Made by a program: the position numbers and the translations under genes | The notes under the pieces: model-generated | The model's database searches: none | The model's input: the letters and a program-made list of their open reading frames with translations, nothing else | What the model was told of the DNA's origin: nothing | Part shown: positions 47,924 to 58,968 of the stretch, in pieces | Numbering within the stretch: the stretch's first letter is position 1 | Layout: every line of letters begins with the position of its first letter | Assembly: GCA_963664435.2 (NCBI GenBank) | Contig: CAXXKM010000002.1 | Location: 640,001 to 704,000 of the forward strand | Reading direction: 5' to 3' | DNA: 64,000 nucleotides | DNA from: Longimicrobiales bacterium | GTDB lineage: Bacteria; Gemmatimonadota; Gemmatimonadetes; Longimicrobiales; Gaopeijiaceae

Positions 47924-49249
47924 ATGGGCGGAGGACGCCTGCGCGCCCCGTGCCTGATGGCGGCGGCCATCGTCATTCCGGTGCTCTGGCTGGTTGGCTG
48001 CGCCGCCGTGCAACAGCCCCCCGCAGGCGGCGGATCGGTTGGGGCGGCCACGACCGTCGAATCGGGCCCGGCCGGCGGCCGCAACGACCCCCGCCATCTC
48101 GACAAGCCCTACGTGGTGGTGGTGTCGTTCGATGGTTTTCGGCACGACTACATCGAGAGGTTCGACACGCCCAACTTCGACCGCGTGGCGGCCGGGGGCG
48201 CTCGCGCCGATGGGCTGATCCCGGTTTTCCCTTCGCTGACCTTCCCCGCACACTACTCCATCGCAACCGGGCTCTATCCGGGAACCCATGGGCTGGTCGC
48301 CAACACCTTCCATGACCGGGAACTCGATCGCACCTATTCCCTCTCGGACCGGGAGACCGTGGAGGACGGGGAATGGTACGGAGGAGAGCCGATCTGGGTG
48401 ACCGCGGAGAAGCAGGGCATGGTGAGCGCGGCCTTCTATTTCGTCGGATCCGAAGCCGACGTACAGGACCTTCAGCCCAGTTACTGGAAGCGCTTCGACC
48501 CGATCATTCCCAACGAAGTGCGCGTCGATACGGTCCTGACCTGGCTTGCCCTTGCCGAGGAGGAGCGACCCCATCTCGTCTCCCTGTATTTCGCCGAAGC
48601 CGACTACGCCGGACACCGGTTCGGCCCCGGCGAGAGCCCGGAACTGGCACAGGCGGTCGCGCAGGTGGACCAGGCGCTCGGACGTCTCCTGGACGGTCTG
48701 GATGAACTTCCCCACGGCGACCAGGTCTTCGTCCTGCTGGTCTCCGACCACGGTATGAGCGAGGTCCTTTCCGAGGGGCACTACGCGGTCGACGAAATCG
48801 CGGACCTGTCCGGGGTTCGGCTGACGTCCGACGGAACCGTGGGCATTCTGTTCGTGGAGGGGGGCGAGGAGCGCATCGAGGAACTGCGCACACAACTCGA
48901 CGAGGGGATGCCGGAGGCGGAGGTCTACCGGCCCGGCGCAGCTCCAGAGCGACTTCGCCTCAAAGGTCATCCTCGCTTCGGGGATCTGGTGATCGTTCCG
49001 GAGGAGGGGTACACGATCGGCATCGGACCTCGCCGGGGCAGCAGCCGGGGGATGCACGGATGGGATCCCCGGGTCCGGTCCATGCACGGCATCTTCCTTG
49101 TTAAGGGGCCCGGCATCGAGGGGGGCACGCGGCTTCCCCCGATCGAAGGAGTGGACATCTATCCCTTCATGGCCCGGGTGCTCGGTCTCCAGCCTGCCGA
49201 CGGAATCGAGGGCGATCCGGAGGCGCTGGCGGGGTTGGGTCGCCGTTAG
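47924..49249 (+). CDS. Ectonucleotide pyrophosphatase/phosphodiesterase lipoprotein
   Basis: Lipobox LVGC; SFDGFR, FPSLTFPAHYSIATG, DYAGH, SDHGM, GMHGWD. Confidence 0.92.
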   Translation: MGGGRLRAPCLMAAAIVIPVLWLVGCAAVQQPPAGGGSVGAATTVESGPAGGRNDPRHLDKPYVVVVSFDGFRHDYIERFDTPNFDRVAAGGARADGLIPVFPSLTFPAHYSIATGLYPGTHGLVANTFHDRELDRTYSLSDRETVEDGEWYGGEPIWVTAEKQGMVSAAFYFVGSEADVQDLQPSYWKRFDPIIPNEVRVDTVLTWLALAEEERPHLVSLYFAEADYAGHRFGPGESPELAQAVAQVDQALGRLLDGLDELPHGDQVFVLLVSDHGMSEVLSEGHYAVDEIADLSGVRLTSDGTVGILFVEGGEERIEELRTQLDEGMPEAEVYRPGAAPERLRLKGHPRFGDLVIVPEEGYTIGIGPRRGSSRGMHGWDPRVRSMHGIFLVKGPGIEGGTRLPPIEGVDIYPFMARVLGLQPADGIEGDPEALAGLGRR

Positions 49250-49359
49250 GCGCAGCCTCCGAGCCGCTTTCGGGGGCACCTCGGAGGTGTGAGAATTCGG
49301 GCCGTGGCACCACGGGGCCGAGGGGCCGGTGGAGGTCCGTTTTTTCTGCCGACCTCCGC

Positions 49360-49389
49360 TTGACACGCTTCGCGGGATTGCTTTACCTT
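49360..49389 (+). promoter_or_regulatory. Putative sigma70 promoter of the tRNA array
   Basis: TTGACA-N18-TACCTT ending 11 nt before tRNA-fMet. Confidence 0.65.
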
Positions 49390-49400
49390 TCGCTTCTCGT

Positions 49401-49474
<74 letters not shown>

Positions 49475-49478
49475 CTTG

Positions 49479-49504
49479 AAAGCGCCGCCGAATGGCGGCG
49501 TTTT
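49479..49504 (+). terminator. Hairpin with short U-tract after tRNA-fMet
   Basis: AAAGCGCCGCC-GAAT-GGCGGCGTTTT. Confidence 0.55.
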
Positions 49505-49560
49505 CCACGTAGCAGGACGGTTTGACGCAGGCAACAACACAGGAGACCGAGGCGAAGATC

Positions 49561-49689
49561 ATGCCGGAAGCGACCGAAATCCGTCGGCCGTGGGCCTTCC
49601 AGAGGCCGGGCCGCGCGCGGGCGCTTCGCTGGTTTCCGTCCGATACGTGGTCGAGCCCTCGCGGGCGGGGAAGCGGGACTCGCCGGTAG
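49561..49689 (+). CDS. Putative Trp/Phe attenuator leader peptide (42 aa)
   Basis: MPEATEIRRPWAFQRPGRARALRWFPSDTWSSPRGRGSGTRR*; GAGG 8 nt upstream; overlaps alternative helices. Confidence 0.55.
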   Translation: MPEATEIRRPWAFQRPGRARALRWFPSDTWSSPRGRGSGTRR

Positions 49690-49713
49690 CCCCCGGCAGA
49701 CTCCCGACCCAGC

Positions 49714-49745
49714 CGCCCGCACCGAAAAGGTTCGGGCGTTTTTTT
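49714..49745 (+). terminator. Intrinsic terminator (attenuator 3:4) abutting tRNA-Phe
   Basis: CGCCCGcACC-GAAAA-GGTtCGGGCG followed by T7. Confidence 0.75.
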
Positions 49746-49818
49746 GGCCAGGTAGCTCAGTTGGTAGAGCACGCGACTGAAAATCGCGGTGTCGGCGGTT
49801 CGATTCCGCCCCTGGCCA
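49746..49818 (+). tRNA. tRNA-Phe(GAA)
   Basis: CGCGA-CTGAAAA-TCGCG; full cloverleaf. Confidence 0.97.
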
Positions 49819-49861
49819 TCTACCGGCTCACCGGCCGGAGGATGGCCGGGTGTGTGCGCGG

Positions 49862-49934
49862 GGGTCCGTAGCTCAACTGGTAGAGCACCGGTCTCCAAAA
49901 CCGGGGGTTGGGGGTTCGAGTCCCTCCGGGCCTG
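49862..49934 (+). tRNA. tRNA-Trp(CCA)
   Basis: CCGGT-CTCCAAA-ACCGG. Confidence 0.97.
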
Positions 49935-49950
49935 TACAACTGGGGGGAGA

Positions 49951-50022
49951 GCCCTCATCGTCTAACGGCTAGGACACCACTCTTTCAAGGTGGCGGTCGG
50001 GGTTCGATTCCCCGTGAGGGCG
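49951..50022 (+). tRNA. tRNA-Glu(TTC)
   Basis: CCACT-CTTTCAA-GGTGG. Confidence 0.95.
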
Positions 50023-50052
50023 TTTGGAAGGACGCGCCAAGAGCGCGAAACA

Positions 50053-50126
50053 GGGGCTGTAGCTCAGTTGGTTAGAGTGCCGGTCTGTCACACCGGAGGC
50101 CGCGGGTTCGAGTCCCGTCAGCCCCG
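50053..50126 (+). tRNA. tRNA-Asp(GTC)
   Basis: CCGGT-CTGTCAC-ACCGG. Confidence 0.97.
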
Positions 50127-50167
50127 CTTGTTTGTTTCTTGACAAATCGGGTCATCGGCGAAGGATC

Positions 50168-50240
50168 GGGGCCGTAGCTCAGTTGGGAGAGCGCCTGAAT
50201 GGCATTCAGGAGGTCAGGGGTTCGATTCCCCTCGGCTCCA
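50168..50240 (+). tRNA. tRNA-Ala(GGC)
   Basis: CTGAA-TGGCA-TTCAG arm; G3:U70. Confidence 0.97.
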
Positions 50241-50269
50241 TGGCGCAGTCTGTTCGCGAAGGCGAGCGA

Positions 50270-50354
50270 GCTCGGATGGCGGAATTGGTAGACGCGCAGG
50301 ATTCAGGATCCTGTGGGGGTTAACCCCGTGAGGGTTCGAGTCCCTCTCCGAGCA
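50270..50354 (+). tRNA. tRNA-Leu(CAG)
   Basis: CAGGA-TTCAGGA-TCCTG; long variable arm. Confidence 0.96.
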
Positions 50355-50403
50355 TGACAGGCCGCGGCGGCAAGCGGCGGCAGCGTTTCGATGGAGGACA
50401 TTT

Positions 50404-50487
50404 GCCCACGTGCTGGAATTGGTAGACAGGCTGGTTTGAGGGACCAGTGTCGGAAACGGCGTACAGGTTCGAGTCCTGTCGTGGGCA
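50404..50487 (+). tRNA. tRNA-Leu(GAG)
   Basis: CTGGT-TTGAGGG-ACCAG; long variable arm. Confidence 0.96.
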
Positions 50488-50539
50488 CTTGCCGGCCATC
50501 AACGGTCGGCCTTCCTTGCCGAAGGCGGTCGGCAAATCA

Positions 50540-50613
50540 GCGCCCGTAGCTCAATTGGACAGAGCGCTTGACTACGGATCAAGAGGTTGGGGGTTCGAGT
50601 CCTCCCGGGCGTA
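50540..50613 (+). tRNA. tRNA-Arg(ACG)
   Basis: CTTGA-CTACGGA-TCAAG. Confidence 0.97.
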
Positions 50614-50658
50614 TTCCCCTCCGGGGGAGGTGAAGGCCAGGACCTGTTTTCCGGCCGA

Positions 50659-50732
50659 GGGCGCGTAGCTCAGCTGGTTAGAGCGCTACGTTGACATCGT
50701 AGAGGTCAGAGGTTCGAGTCCTCTCGCGCCCA
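50659..50732 (+). tRNA. tRNA-Val(GAC)
   Basis: CTACG-TTGACAT-CGTAG. Confidence 0.97.
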
Positions 50733-50769
50733 TGCGCCGACGCGGCATCCGTGGAGGCGAGCAGGGGCA

Positions 50770-50842
50770 GGGGCCGTAGCTCAGTTGGGAGAGCGCAGCG
50801 TTCGCAACGCTGAGGTCAGGGGTTCGATTCCCCTCGGCTCCA
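50770..50842 (+). tRNA. tRNA-Ala(CGC)
   Basis: CAGCG-TTCGCAA-CGCTG; G3:U70. Confidence 0.97.
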
Positions 50843-50885
50843 TTCCCGGTTGGCCGGCGAGATTCGCGAGGCGGTCGGTATGGTC

Positions 50886-50958
50886 GCCACCATAGCTCAG
50901 CTGGTAGAGCACGTCACTCGTAATGACGGGGTCGTCGGTTCGAATCCGACTGGTGGCT
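50886..50958 (+). tRNA. tRNA-Thr(CGT)
   Basis: CGTCA-CTCGTAA-TGACG. Confidence 0.97.
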
Positions 50959-50964
50959 TGCCGC

Positions 50965-50992
50965 TTGCCAGCCGGCCTGGCGAGCGTAAAAT
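50965..50992 (+). promoter_or_regulatory. Putative internal promoter for tRNA-Gln/Ser
   Basis: TTGCCA-N16-TAAAAT ending 10 nt before tRNA-Gln. Confidence 0.55.
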
Positions 50993-51002
50993 TGGGATTG
51001 GA

Positions 51003-51075
51003 TGCCCCGTGGTGTAACTGGCAACACGTCTGACTCTGGATCAGAAGAGTCCTGGTTCGATCCCAGGCGGGGCAA
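51003..51075 (+). tRNA. tRNA-Gln(CTG)
   Basis: TCTGA-CTCTGGA-TCAGA. Confidence 0.96.
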
Positions 51076-51079
51076 TATC

Positions 51080-51165
51080 GGAGGGGTGGCCGAGTGGCTT
51101 AAGGCGGCGCCCTGCTAAGGCGTTGACCCGAGAGGGTCTCGTGGGTTCGAATCCCACCCCCTCCG
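51080..51165 (+). tRNA. tRNA-Ser(GCT)
   Basis: GCGCC-CTGCTAA-GGCGT; long variable arm. Confidence 0.96.
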
Positions 51166-51186
51166 CTTGCGGGCGAAGCCCGCGAT

Positions 51187-51350
51187 CAGAGGGGGCGTGA
51201 TTCGAACCCGGGGTTCGAGCCTCCGGTGCTTCGCATCCTCGGCTCACCTTCGGCCCGGCTGGCGCCGGCCTCGGTTGCGAATCCCGCGGGCAGATATCAC
51301 CGGGCACGGTCGCGGGCCGCTATCCGAGTCCAGGATTGAGGTTGCCGGTC
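51187..51350 (+). repeat. tRNA-Ser-linked repeat element, copy A
   Basis: Aligns over about 165 bp with 51605-51768; begins with antisense of the tRNA-Ser(GCT) 3' end. Confidence 0.85.
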
Positions 51351-51501
51351 GGGCATCTCGTCCTGGGTTCTGAGGCCCCGGCTTCACTTCGTTCCTTGGG
51401 CGGGTTGCTTCTGACCTCGCGTCAGATATGCTCCGCTGCGGTCAAGCCGGCCGTGCTTCTCTCACCGGTTTCCCTGCAGGTTGTAGTGGCCACAATTGTT
51501 C

Positions 51502-51585
51502 GGACGGGTGGCCGAGTGGCTTAAGGCGCACGATTGGAAATCGTGTGGGCTCACGCCCACGTGGGTTCGAATCCCACCCCGTCCG
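51502..51585 (+). tRNA. tRNA-Ser(GGA)
   Basis: CACGA-TTGGAAA-TCGTG; long variable arm. Confidence 0.96.
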
Positions 51586-51604
51586 CTGACGGCGGAGCCG
51601 CCCT

Positions 51605-51835
51605 CGGACGGGGTGGGCTTCGAACCCAGGGTTGAGCCTTCCGGTGCTTCGCATCCTCGGCTCACCTTCGGCCCGCTGGCGCGGGCCTCGGTTGCGAATC
51701 CCACCCCGGGTAGATACAACGGACACGGTAGGCGGCCGGTCTTCGAACCTAGAGTTGAGGTTGCGGGCGCTTTGCGTCCCCGGCCCGCCTTCGGCACCGC
51801 TGCGCGGCCTCTCGGCTGCGAATCCCACCCCGTCC
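51605..51835 (+). repeat. tRNA-Ser-linked repeat element, copy B (two tandem units)
   Basis: Starts with 23/24 antisense of the tRNA 3' end; units end in CGAATCCCACCCCG (to 51708) and CGAATCCCACCCCGTCC (51819-51835). Confidence 0.88.
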
Positions 51836-51964
51836 TTGGTTCGGACGAGCTGGAGGCTTGGGAGGGCGAATCCTAGGCGCTTTCCGCCGGGGGAATCACC
51901 TTGCCGGGTGGGTGGAGCACCTGCCAATTGTTTGCATCGCCGTCTACGGGCGGTACCCACATTT

Positions 51965-52038
51965 CGGGGCGTGGCTCAGTCCGGTAGAGCGCTGCGTTCG
52001 GGTCGCAGAGGTCCCCGGTTCAAATCCGGGCGCCCCGA
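51965..52038 (+). tRNA. tRNA-Pro(CGG)
   Basis: CTGCG-TTCGGGT-CGCAG. Confidence 0.97.
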
Positions 52039-52094
52039 TTTTGACAGCAGGTGGAGAGGTTTCCGTCCTCAAGCCGATCGGCCCGGTTTCGTCC

Positions 52095-52177
52095 GGAGGC
52101 GTAGTCTAATTGGTAAGGCACCGCACTCGAAATGCGGCGGGCGAAAGCCCTTGGGGGTTCGAGTCCCCCCGCCTCCG
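52095..52177 (+). tRNA. tRNA-Ser(CGA)
   Basis: CCGCA-CTCGAAA-TGCGG; variable arm GGGCGAAAGCCC. Confidence 0.94.
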
Positions 52178-52283
52178 CTTCCATTCCGGTGTCCGTCCCC
52201 GCGCCCTCCCATGACCAGTCGGGGCGACGATCATCACGGTCGCAGCTGGCACATGGGCATCTGATCGCCGGGAGGTCCAGGCC

Positions 52284-53141
52284 ATGCTCGGGCTCGATTT
52301 CATCGCCCATCCCCTGTCAGGCACGCCGTTCGGGACCGCGCTCGAGTTGTGCCTCGTCCTCGCGCTGGTGGCCTGGCTCCTGTCCCTGATCACCCGCGAA
52401 GTCTCCTGGATCGACCGCCTCTGGTCCATCTGCCCGCCGATCTATTGCCTGATCGTCGCGGCTGCGGCGGGCTTCGACTCCCCACGCGTGACGCTCATGA
52501 CGACGCTCGTGGTCGCGTGGGGCATCCGCCTGACGTACAACTTCGCCCGCAAGGGCGGGTACCGGCCGGGCGGGGAGGACTACCGGTGGGCGCACGTCCG
52601 CAAACAGTACGGTCCGGTGGGCTTCCAGCTGCTCAGCGTCACCTTCGTCCATCCCGGCCAGATGCTGCTCATCTGGCTGTTCACCTCCCCGATCCACCGC
52701 GCCTGGCAGTTCCCCGACGCGACGCTCGGCTGGCTGGACTACCTGGCGGCGGCTCTGTTCCTGACCCTGCTGGTCGGCGAAACCGTTGCCGACAGGCAGA
52801 TGTGGGACTTCCAGCAGGACAAGAAGCGACGGATTGCCAACGGCGAAGACGTCCGGCAGCCGTTCATGACCAACGGGCTCTATCGCTACTCCCGGCACCC
52901 CAACTACTTCTGCGAAATCGCCATCTGGTGGGTTTTCTACCTGTTCGCGGTTGCGGCGTCCGGTGAGTGGCTGCACTGGACGGGACTCGGGTTCATCGGC
53001 CTTACGCTGCTGTTCATTCCGTCCCTCCGCATGACTGAAGCGATCTCTGCGGAAAAGTATCCCGGCTACCGTGACTACCAGGCGGCCGTCCCGGCGTTGA
53101 TCCCGCTGCCTCGGAAGGACAGGGCAAAGGCTGCCGGCTGA
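52284..53141 (+). CDS. DUF1295 family membrane protein (steroid 5-alpha-reductase-like)
   Basis: SWIDRLWSICP, WGIRLTYNFARKGGY..GEDYRW, ETVADRQMW, GLYRYSRHPNYFCE. Confidence 0.92.
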   Translation: MLGLDFIAHPLSGTPFGTALELCLVLALVAWLLSLITREVSWIDRLWSICPPIYCLIVAAAAGFDSPRVTLMTTLVVAWGIRLTYNFARKGGYRPGGEDYRWAHVRKQYGPVGFQLLSVTFVHPGQMLLIWLFTSPIHRAWQFPDATLGWLDYLAAALFLTLLVGETVADRQMWDFQQDKKRRIANGEDVRQPFMTNGLYRYSRHPNYFCEIAIWWVFYLFAVAASGEWLHWTGLGFIGLTLLFIPSLRMTEAISAEKYPGYRDYQAAVPALIPLPRKDRAKAAG

Positions 53142-57580: not shown

Positions 57581-58873
57581 TCAGTCCAGCGGCTGGCCGA
57601 CCTTCTCGGGCATCTGGACGAAGGTCACGAGCGAGACGACCGCGCCTGCCAGCACCACGAGAAAGAACGACTGCTCCCTGCCGATGCTCTGCAGCCAGGT
57701 GAGGAGGTAGGGCGTGAGCCCCCCCAGCAGAGCGACCGTCAGGTTATAGGGGATGCCGATGCCGACGGCCCGCACGTTGGCGGGGAACTGCTCCGACATG
57801 ATCGCCGGCGCGATGGAGGAATACATCGCGTAGAGCCCCAGGCCGAACAGTTCCAGCATGAGAATCGAACCGAAGGTCGGCTGGATCGCGGACATCAGGG
57901 GATAGAAGAGGACGAGGTAGCCGAGGGCGAAGAAGATGAGCTGGGGTTTGCGTCCGATCCGGTCGGAGAGTGCGCCGAAGACCGGCTGCAGGAGCATGAA
58001 CACGATGAGGCCGACGGTGTTGGCCGCGAAGGCCACCGAGGCTTCAGCGCCGACGGCGCGGATCGCGTATGTGGGCAAATAGGGGACGAAGATGTAGAAG
58101 GCGAAGGTCGTCAGCGTGGCGAACCCCACGATGCGCAGCAGCGCGACCGGATGCTCGCGCAGAAGAACCTGCAGCGGGCGCTTCACGACGTCCTTGCCGG
58201 ACGCGGCCGGCGATGCCTCGGGTTCGGGGACCGCCGCTCGAATCCAGAGGCCGATCAGCCCGCCGACCCCGCCGAGTATGAAGGGAACGCGCCATCCCCA
58301 GGTTCGCATCGCTTCTTCGGTCAAGGCCGTCGTGAGCCCCCAGCCGAGCGCCGAAGCCACGAGGATGCCGGCGGCCAGGCTGAAGAACACGAAGCTCGAG
58401 AAAAAGCCGCGACGGCTGGCGGGCGCGATTTCGGCGAGCAGGGTGGTGGCCGAGGCGTAGAGTCCGCCCAGCGACAGTCCCTGTACCAGACGCGCCGCGG
58501 TCAGGATGACGGGCGCGAGGATTCCCACCGAGGCGAACGTCGGGGACAGGCCGATCACCAGTGAACCGCCCGCCATCATGAGGATGCTCAGAACGAGCGC
58601 CGCCTTGCGGCCCCTGCGGTCCGCGAAGACGCCGATGATCCAGCCGCCGAGCGGGCGCATGATGAAGCCCACGGCGAAGATGCCGTAAGCGGCCAGCAGC
58701 GCGGTCGTCTCGTTCCCCGGCGGGAAGAACTGGCTGCTGAAGAAGATCGCGAACGTGGCGTACACGGTCCAATCGAACCACTCGAGCGCGTTCCCTACGC
58801 TCGCGGCTACGATGGCGCGGCGGCGCGAGGGAATTGAGGCGGGAGAGGAAGCGACCATGGGCGCGCCTGTCAA
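57581..58873 (-). CDS. MFS transporter, metabolite:H+ symporter (KgtP/ProP-like)
   Basis: GNALEWFDWTVY, MRPLGG..G.FADRRGRK, RLVQGLSLGG, WGWRVPF, SDRIGRKP. Start 58873 (TTG) or 58858 (ATG). Confidence 0.93.
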   Translation of the reverse strand: MTGAPMVASSPASIPSRRRAIVAASVGNALEWFDWTVYATFAIFFSSQFFPPGNETTALLAAYGIFAVGFIMRPLGGWIIGVFADRRGRKAALVLSILMMAGGSLVIGLSPTFASVGILAPVILTAARLVQGLSLGGLYASATTLLAEIAPASRRGFFSSFVFFSLAAGILVASALGWGLTTALTEEAMRTWGWRVPFILGGVGGLIGLWIRAAVPEPEASPAASGKDVVKRPLQVLLREHPVALLRIVGFATLTTFAFYIFVPYLPTYAIRAVGAEASVAFAANTVGLIVFMLLQPVFGALSDRIGRKPQLIFFALGYLVLFYPLMSAIQPTFGSILMLELFGLGLYAMYSSIAPAIMSEQFPANVRAVGIGIPYNLTVALLGGLTPYLLTWLQSIGREQSFFLVVLAGAVVSLVTFVQMPEKVGQPLD

Positions 58874-58878
58874 GGGAC

Positions 58879-58968
58879 CTGGTATGTCACAACAAACTGG
58901 TACGTCACAACAAACTGGTACGTCACAACAAACTGGTACGTCACAACAAACTGGTATGTCACAACAAA
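58879..58968. repeat. Tandem repeat, 5 x 18 bp CTGGTAYGTCACAACAAA
   Basis: Units start at 58879, 58897, 58915, 58933 and 58951; outer units have T and inner three have C at position 7. Confidence 0.97.

Follow-up and report, generated by a model that had tools for sequence, protein, structure and literature searches.

Hairpin cores in split T-loop copies behind Gemmatimonadota tRNA genes: probable traces of a non-autonomous, strand-specific DNA insertion element

What kind of sequence places antisense and sense copies of a tRNA 3'-end directly behind the tRNA gene itself? This question is raised by a 64,000-nt stretch of a Longimicrobiales genome (the window; its source genome is termed G000, with further G-numbers denoting genomes and L-numbers loci of the comparison set), in which tRNA-Ser(GCT) and tRNA-Ser(GGA) are each followed by an array of hairpin-rich repeats. 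Both genes lie in an operon-like cluster of 17 tRNA genes (49401-52178), the order of which is similar in other families of the order. A sequence-only reading of the window had described the arrays as copies of a MITE-like, tRNA-targeting element with the tRNA ends as its terminal inverted repeats, and the figures that it gave for the copies of the tRNA-Ser 3'-ends all hold upon re-examination (antisense matches of 23/24 and 20/24, an identical core and an exact 17-nt end). The parts of the two arrays are as follows, in window positions:

51080..51166, plus strand: tRNA-Ser(GCT), host gene of the first array
51169..51183, plus strand: trailer hairpin (hp1), which closes the fold-back between the tRNA end and the antisense arm
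51187..51210, minus strand: antisense copy of the tRNA-Ser(GCT) T-arm and acceptor 3'-strand, 20/24 match
51215..51276, plus strand: 62-nt hairpin core, between a GGGT copy of T-stem/T54 and the T-loop where it resumes
51277..51400 (end approximate), plus strand: short sense copy of the T-loop end, then a strongly decayed second unit
51502..51586, plus strand: tRNA-Ser(GGA), host gene of the second array
51572-51698: 127-bp tandem unit of the GGA array
51591..51599, plus strand: core of the trailer hairpin (hp1) of the GGA array
51605..51628, minus strand: antisense copy of the tRNA-Ser(GGA) T-arm and acceptor 3'-strand, 23/24 match
51633..51693, plus strand: 61-nt hairpin core, placed at T54/T55 of the tRNA 3'-copy
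51694..51708, plus strand: sense copy of the tRNA 3'-end, resuming at the T-loop
51740..51817, plus strand: second, more decayed GGA unit with a remnant antisense T-loop and a 62-nt core (51756-51817)
51819..51835, plus strand: exact 17-nt copy of the tRNA-Ser(GGA) 3'-end (equal to 51568-51584), a hallmark of tRNA-linked repeats (TLRs)

The cores of the two arrays are identical over 34 nt (51223-51256 and 51641-51674), the antisense arms form 32-nt inverted repeats with the tRNA, and the 3'-copy of the tRNA is decayed in the GCT unit and exact over 17 nt in the last GGA unit. Position 55 is G, not T, in the core copies of the window, and the GNA and GNNA loops of the core at 51215..51276 lie on the minus strand. 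Elsewhere in the window, a short intergenic 18-bp tandem repeat at approximately 58834-58930 is read as QQTGTS or HNKLVR repeats in spurious ORFs.

Within G000, an antisense match of at least 20/24 within 150 nt occurs at 3 of the 55 tRNA genes called by ARAGORN, the next best match being 16/24. A third array of two units lies on another contig behind tRNA-Ser(TGA) (G000:C3:358492-358577): the GCT, GGA and TGA genes have one common T-arm and all carry units, one to three per gene and directly downstream of it, whilst tRNA-Ser(CGA) has a different T-arm and no unit. BLAST of the region against the genome confined the core to these three loci. Database records that bear the same element are titled as Longimicrobiales or Gemmatimonadetes and in some cases as Gammaproteobacteria; the best-matching sequencing runs are sponge metagenomes, and a metagenome scan yielded four stretches with the element, with ARAGORN giving a tRNA-Ser at all four. 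A Haematobacter match from the GTDB scan was dropped as apparent coding sequence with no tRNA. Viral scans gave 0, 5 (chance) and 0 matches to the window-type core, and BLAST returned nothing from phages and short chance pieces only from plasmids.

The genus sample comprised 18 genomes, namely G000 and, of its 18 listed relatives, all but G015. Units were found at 14/15 GCT, 13/15 GGA and 0/15 CGA loci and at 15/17 TGA loci, the last value being biased upward since most TGA loci were fetched because they matched; one further filled locus has no anticodon call. The element is absent from all four tRNA-Ser genes of G006, and some other loci are empty as well. Each tandem unit of approximately 127 bp runs from the tRNA 3'-end, starting at the T-loop, through the trailer hairpin, the antisense arm, the short GGGT copy and the core to the resumed T-loop; first units are the most intact and distal units are decayed, with three identical 128-bp units standing behind tRNA-Ser(TGA) in G008. 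At this locus (L046, G008:C1:2599160-2599930) the three units are followed by approximately 250 bp of other hairpin-rich DNA and then by a further core unit, and at another locus (L022:251-470, G023) a different small antisense and direct copy of the tRNA-Ser(GCT) 3'-end is present with no core.

The arms of first units match the tRNA beside which they lie, as the sequence-only reading had supposed: the C/G position of the local acceptor is tracked in 10/12 GGA, 14/14 GCT and 11/12 TGA first units. The cores behave differently. Across 39 first units from 17 genomes, core likeness within a genome was 0.853 against 0.822 expected (0/2000 permutations), with a weaker effect by locus (0.833 against 0.824; 10/2000 permutations), whilst the hairpin and antisense part goes with the tRNA locus (0.76 against 0.709; 0/2000 permutations). 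This combination, core likeness by genome and tRNA-side likeness by locus, indicates that the copies exchange cores and that the arms stay matched to the local tRNA. A structure of 28 pairs fitted to 47 units is paired in 95.2% of cells with 78 double changes, a value reached by 0/500 shuffles, although the kin are not independent; slid controls of the same structure were 37-46% paired.

Beyond the genus, strict patterns over 401 genomes of the phylum proved too narrow (7/401, all from the genus, and 5/401 including one chance coding match), which was corrected by a core-only covariance model (R2). A first covariance model (R1) matched 5/151 family and 12/151 class genomes; with R2, at E <= 0.05, matches were obtained in 48/141 genomes of family f4 and 51/150 genomes of family f1, the weak end of which includes chance matches. 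The conserved part of the element is a core of 38-110 nt made of small hairpins. For the orientation survey we took the best match of each of 51 genomes outside the training set (60 loci were returned): by strict script, 22 were assigned to orientation A and 10 to orientation B, with 19 unassigned; inspection by eye shows several of the latter to be more strongly mismatched tRNA or tmRNA fragments, and about five look like chance. In orientation A, the window type, the core stands between T54 and T55 of a tRNA T-loop copy; orientation B has it on the opposite strand, at the mirror site A58/A59, so that the sense strand reads GGTTCGA, reversed core, ATCC. By script or by eye, the targets include the tRNAs for Ser, Phe, Ala, Arg, Lys, Pro, Met, Leu and Cys, at least nine amino acids, together with tmRNA.

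The junctions of 40 core copies were compared with a tRNA of the same genome, using a script that tested T54/T55 and its mirror only, both of which lie between two T's: 21 A copies (one of them mis-assigned) and 6 B copies join with no skipped base, one skips a single base and 12 are weak. Target bases are mostly neither lost nor duplicated at these junctions, and the first bases of the insert vary (TGAG, GGAG, TCAC, GCAC, ACAC, AGGG). The element does not have the tRNA ends as its terminal repeats: its tRNA-like flanks are target sequence split at the T-loop, and the core also occurs at many sites with no antisense arm at all, including attR-type tRNA fragments. The earlier description as a MITE-like element is supported in that the element is small, non-coding, targeted to tRNA and probably mobile, and unsupported as regards its terminal inverted repeats.

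In G457, three units stand behind tRNA-Lys(TTT) with arms rewritten to match tRNA-Lys. The idea that a single ancestral duplication of tRNA-Ser accounts for the repeats fails. In G063, units follow tRNA-Ser GGA and CGA, and the remaining R1 matches outside the genus are tRNA fragments with no gene nearby; in many relatives the tRNA 3'-copies are longer, at 19-20 nt. The empty alleles that the sequence-only reading had proposed to look for exist. G302 has a row of gene cassettes behind a tRNA-Lys gene, and every cassette closes with a tRNA 3'-half that starts at the anticodon loop; the T-loop is plain in the first of these fragments and holds a core of approximately 42 nt in the second and third. 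In G077, the gene for tRNA-Arg(CCG) is intact with an integrase beside it; at a distance of 40 kb lies a fragment of it in which a 38-nt core separates T54 from T55 exactly. These two genomes show empty and filled versions of one site. In G317, a whole tRNA-Arg(ACG) gene in an apparent phage tRNA cluster (L191:1360-1760) is interrupted by a core at the T54/T55 site with no duplication; an intact tRNA-Arg(ACG) was not found by pattern in this genome (95% complete, about 160 contigs), and splicing of the interrupted gene is unsupported.

The core is not confined to the neighbourhood of tRNA genes: besides the attR-type fragments, G163 has 11 matches, two of them behind tRNAs and at least seven between ordinary genes, and several of its copies sit inside 6-bp tandem repeats at GT^TC-like joins (L247-L255). 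As to the gene cassettes, stretches of 1-2 kb behind tRNA-Lys(TTT), each ended by a tRNA 3'-half from the anticodon loop, were seen in G302 (L170:14655-19710), G559 (L246) and G590 (L264). Two tRNA-Lys(TTT) cassettes have a common upstream arm, with no integrase among the ORFs listed in 5 kb.

The loops of the core bear on the strand and the nucleic acid that may be at work. Among 47 related cores, matches to GNA loops on the strand opposite to the sense strand number 51 for GC-GNA-GC and 62 for CC-GNA-GG, against 0 on the sense strand; GNA loops lie opposite to the model strand in 27/31 A copies, and GNA or GNNA loops do so in 12/13 B copies, a census that is biased because the models were trained on TNC loops. 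Within the genus, length and middle bases of the loops change and the flanking G and A are mostly kept, and most tetraloops (GCCA, GACA, GTCA, GATA) are not GNRA. As d(GNA) triloops are very stable DNA loops (according to the accessible part of PMC3201870) and as the GNA strand flips with the core rather than following transcription, the loop types point to folded single-stranded DNA, and we infer that the working form of the core would be single-stranded DNA folded on the GNA-loop strand. Wobble pairs are in conflict, with G-T favouring the sense strand at three positions and A-C the other strand at one. In predictions, the circular unit takes the shape of a dumbbell in which an invariant G is bulged out, and for whole units the more stable DNA fold is that of the minus strand in 38/38; for the core alone, the minus strand is predicted to be better in 29/38 as DNA and 16/38 as RNA, with energies so close that this carries little weight. 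In the contigs of four sequencing runs, no join left out a unit; one RNA run has 63 nt of the core in its assembled contigs, which does not establish transcription.

The design of the units is that of the TLRs described in E. coli. According to the accessible part of PMC8144298, these have been known since 1978 with neither origin nor function and comprise 22 sequences at ten loci, the last 18-19 bp of which equal the 3'-end of the upstream tRNA or rRNA gene; they are treated there as RNA genes and not as insertions, and three are transcribed, processed and bound by Hfq and CsrA. TLR RNAs are further reported in bioRxiv 2024.07.17.603846. Read with the Gemmatimonadota copies in mind, several TLRs of strain MG1655 contain a piece of antisense T-arm, a sense copy of the T-arm with a split in its T-loop, GNA/GNNA hairpins and a 3'-copy: of 13 E. 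coli TLR rows, 5 consist of a T-arm copy, a 64-74-nt insert and ATCC, 4 are short Lys units with no 5'-copy and 4 have no such copy within 110 nt. The first of these patterns is the arrangement of the B-oriented Gemmatimonadota copies. The window's core has the opposite orientation, at T54/T55 as against A58/A59, and the GNA loops of the E. coli TLRs lie on the tRNA-sense strand, those of the window's family on the opposite one.

In 47/47 cases, window-type cores align better to 13 E. coli cores when reverse-complemented than in the forward direction (26.0 against 14.2), with genome pieces scoring 17.1 +/- 2.4, 4/2000 GC-matched controls reaching 26.0 and the complement control being high at 20.9. 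A motif of the arm, with TGAGA in place of the antisense T-loop, occurs seven times in MG1655, always in TLR loci (Ser, Tyr, Pro), twice in the B-type genome G483 and four times in G487; it was not found in G000, G163 or the reversed control, its complement is present in a few A copies, and 3 of 9 viral-contig matches to it look like B units. Covariance model R1 found no match in E. coli, and a profile of 9 B elements, too weak to use, matched neither the E. coli loci nor the window's copies.

Which enzyme could move such a core? Y1 transposases and RAYTs gave no match in G000, G008, G487 or G457, and small GIY-YIG proteins none in G000 or G008, each of which has one long GIY-YIG reading frame; the cut-off of the integron integrase model (TIGR02249) was exceeded in one of five genomes, G163, and not in G000. 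A core stands beside none of 26 Y1, GIY-YIG or IntI loci. An all-against-all comparison of the ORFs around cores returned syntenic neighbours only and no recurring mobile gene. G000 does have 41 tyrosine-recombinase matches, one of them approximately 7.5 kb from the TGA copy and 0 of the 41 in the window, where the absence of a nearby integrase had been correctly noted. About 26 of its tyrosine integrases are related (closest pairs 74-99% alike) and several lie beside tRNA genes (examples: C3:366152-367486, C3:41193-42593, C3:1150803-1153605); their clade is also found beside tRNA-Arg(CCG) in G077 and in 35/141 genomes of family f4. This clade was tried as the mover and rejected, with no association to the core (7/24 core-bearing genomes against 35/141 overall). 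Since every tested mover failed, the window's copies may be old ones that today spread through recombination among themselves alone. The most promising genome for a mover is G163, where dispersed cores occur together with several small GIY-YIG genes, an integron integrase and a RAYT.

Three other readings of the units have to be weighed. The unit as a whole might be a minimal integrative element, a single-stranded circle of approximately 127 nt whose dumbbell stem mimics the T-arm and for which a tyrosine recombinase exchanges one T-loop strand. Integron cassettes and the CTX phage are precedents for one-strand exchange on folded DNA by a tyrosine recombinase, and clean tandem units that restore the tRNA end, the predicted dumbbell with its bulged invariant G and minus-strand preference as DNA (38/38) and the 41 tyrosine-recombinase matches in G000 would all suit it. 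We nevertheless consider it unlikely: many copies have no antisense arm or duplication, a fixed circle cannot match the tRNAs of at least nine amino acids unless it is rebuilt, G000 has no IntI and the one integrase clade tested showed no association. Very improbable, in our judgement, is an origin as relics of large integrative elements, in which the core would be part of an island's att arm at the tRNA and the short units would be left after deletion of the island body. Many cores do lie in island-end fragments, the G077 island has an integrase beside its tRNA, and tRNA-Lys fragments of three families have cores and arms that resemble each other; against this, such fragments start at the anticodon loop and so have a T-arm derived from the target, a common upstream arm is shared by two junctions of which one has the core and one has not, and copies are found in a whole tRNA gene and in simple repeats with no island context.

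The units could also be domesticated RNA structures of the pre-tRNA trailer, maintained by selection as a processing signal, an antisense brake on tRNA-Ser maturation or a small RNA like rtT or RrB, with mobility being ancient or absent. First units kept at orthologous GCT, GGA and TGA genes in the proportions given above and covarying stems speak for it, as do the processed E. coli TLR RNAs and the predicted equilibrium fold, from which T-stem and acceptor stem vanish once the trailer reaches 45 nt. Yet the core occurs either way round with respect to transcription, in attR-type fragments and at intergenic sites away from tRNA genes; G006 has no units and some loci are empty; and the loop types fit DNA, not GNRA or UNCG RNA loops. 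As the main explanation we hold this to be distinctly unlikely, although an RNA role can hold as a later use of some copies: a secondary role of this kind is possible, given the existence of E. coli TLR RNAs and the predicted competition of the antisense arm with pre-tRNA folding, by which the T- and acceptor stems would be opened at equilibrium.

In our view, the units are probably tRNA-linked repeats built around a non-autonomous, strand-specific DNA insertion element that mostly survives in spare tRNA ends. The core would fold as single-stranded DNA on its GNA-loop strand, and an enzyme acting in trans would join it to a GT^TC-like site on one strand; because the T-loop sequence around TCGA is close to a palindrome, an enzyme that joins one strand 5' of this motif would produce both orientations. 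A cell would not survive the loss of a needed tRNA gene to an insertion, and the surviving cores are accordingly to be expected in spare 3'-copies or alongside a duplication of the tRNA end. Duplications of the window type would include a fold-back (antisense) copy as well, allowing the unit to form a dumbbell resembling the double-stranded T-arm. Next to the tRNA, repeated insertion or unequal exchange could then keep the first unit intact, let distal units decay and mix cores between loci. Occupancy in the genus is nearly fixed per locus, which fits old, inherited copies and counts against this view. Judged by its chemistry, an HUH (Y1)-like single-strand transposase would be the best candidate enzyme and a tyrosine recombinase acting on a folded substrate the second, a route kept available by the predicted dumbbell with its bulged invariant G.

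The resemblance to E. coli suggests that the tRNA-linked repeats of this organism are scars of a tiny mobile DNA element. Tentatively, and a little short of calling it probable, we extend this to TLRs across bacteria: they could form one widespread family of protein-less single-stranded-DNA micro-elements with precise insertion into either strand of the palindromic T-loop. Such elements would take their arms from the target and in this way be re-programmed by the tRNA at hand, their mover would be an enzyme other than a linked RAYT, Ssn or integron integrase, and they may lock islands in place. Through their exact junctions, empty and filled sites and two orientations, the Gemmatimonadota copies turn the origin of TLRs into a testable question of DNA insertion at a nearly universal 7-base target; the enzyme, if it is identified, would amount to a site-specific single-strand inserter that leaves no scar and has its target in nearly all genomes. 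Were the proposal true, a core in the T-loop of an attR site might lock a genomic island, since excision would hand the host a broken tRNA, and such cores bear on the stabilisation of islands at tRNA genes and on how island-finding tools read tRNA fragments.

How, then, does this element compare with known systems? Like integron attC sites and the folded attP of CTX phage, which combine a long imperfect hairpin, an extrahelical G and strand-biased loops with single-strand exchange, the unit has an imperfect long hairpin, an extrahelical G and strand-biased loops and might be exchanged as a single strand; it differs in that G000 has no integron integrase, the unit holds no gene and the target is a tRNA T-loop. 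Islands that integrate at tRNA genes by means of tyrosine integrases, reportedly described by Williams in 2002 and 2003 with sites in the anticodon loop and the T-loop, resemble it in their tandem arrays at tRNA genes, displaced 3'-fragments and newest member next to the gene; here, however, the unit carries no gene and the core interrupts the displaced fragment, in either orientation, instead of flanking it. A MITE would have element-encoded terminal inverted repeats and a short target-site duplication, whereas here many insertions have no inverted tRNA copy, those copies that exist vary with the target, and insertion at T54/T55 or its mirror duplicates no bases.

With REP/BIME, REPIN-RAYT and IS200/IS605 elements, as presented in the accessible part of PMC3333891, it shares small non-autonomous DNA hairpins, local tandem amplification and strand-specific joining with no target duplication: IS200/IS605 transposition is strand-specific and leaves no target repeat, and TnpA-REP has been proposed to amplify BIMEs in tandem (PMC3333891). 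In contrast to REP and REPIN sequences, it has no constant GTAG tag at the hairpin foot, a GT^TC target in the T-loop and not C^T, and few copies per genome; G000 has no RAYT, and none is flanked by the core. The hairpin repeats (NTS/SRM) of Ssn nucleases are likewise processed as single-stranded DNA, as far as the accessible part of PMC11893778 goes, but G000 and G008 have no small GIY-YIG gene and no core adjoins such genes in other genomes. No Rfam family other than tRNA reaches its gathering score within 49000-52500. The design is that of the E. coli TLRs, among them the tyrT-tyrV 178-bp repeats with the rtT RNA, which likewise form short tandem arrays behind tRNA genes, with one to five repeats per locus in tRNA or rRNA operons, and end in a copy of the upstream tRNA's 3'-end. 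From these the window's copies differ in a 3'-copy of at most 17 nt as against the 18-19 bp of the accessible TLR description (PMC8144298) and in an antisense arm that is an almost perfect 24-mer. No T-loop insertion element is described in the literature covered; Rudd 1999, Egan and Landy 1978 and Williams 2002/2003 lie outside this coverage and may bear on the point. New here are the exact insertion site, both orientations in one family, empty and filled sites, copies away from tRNA genes and the motif link to E. coli.
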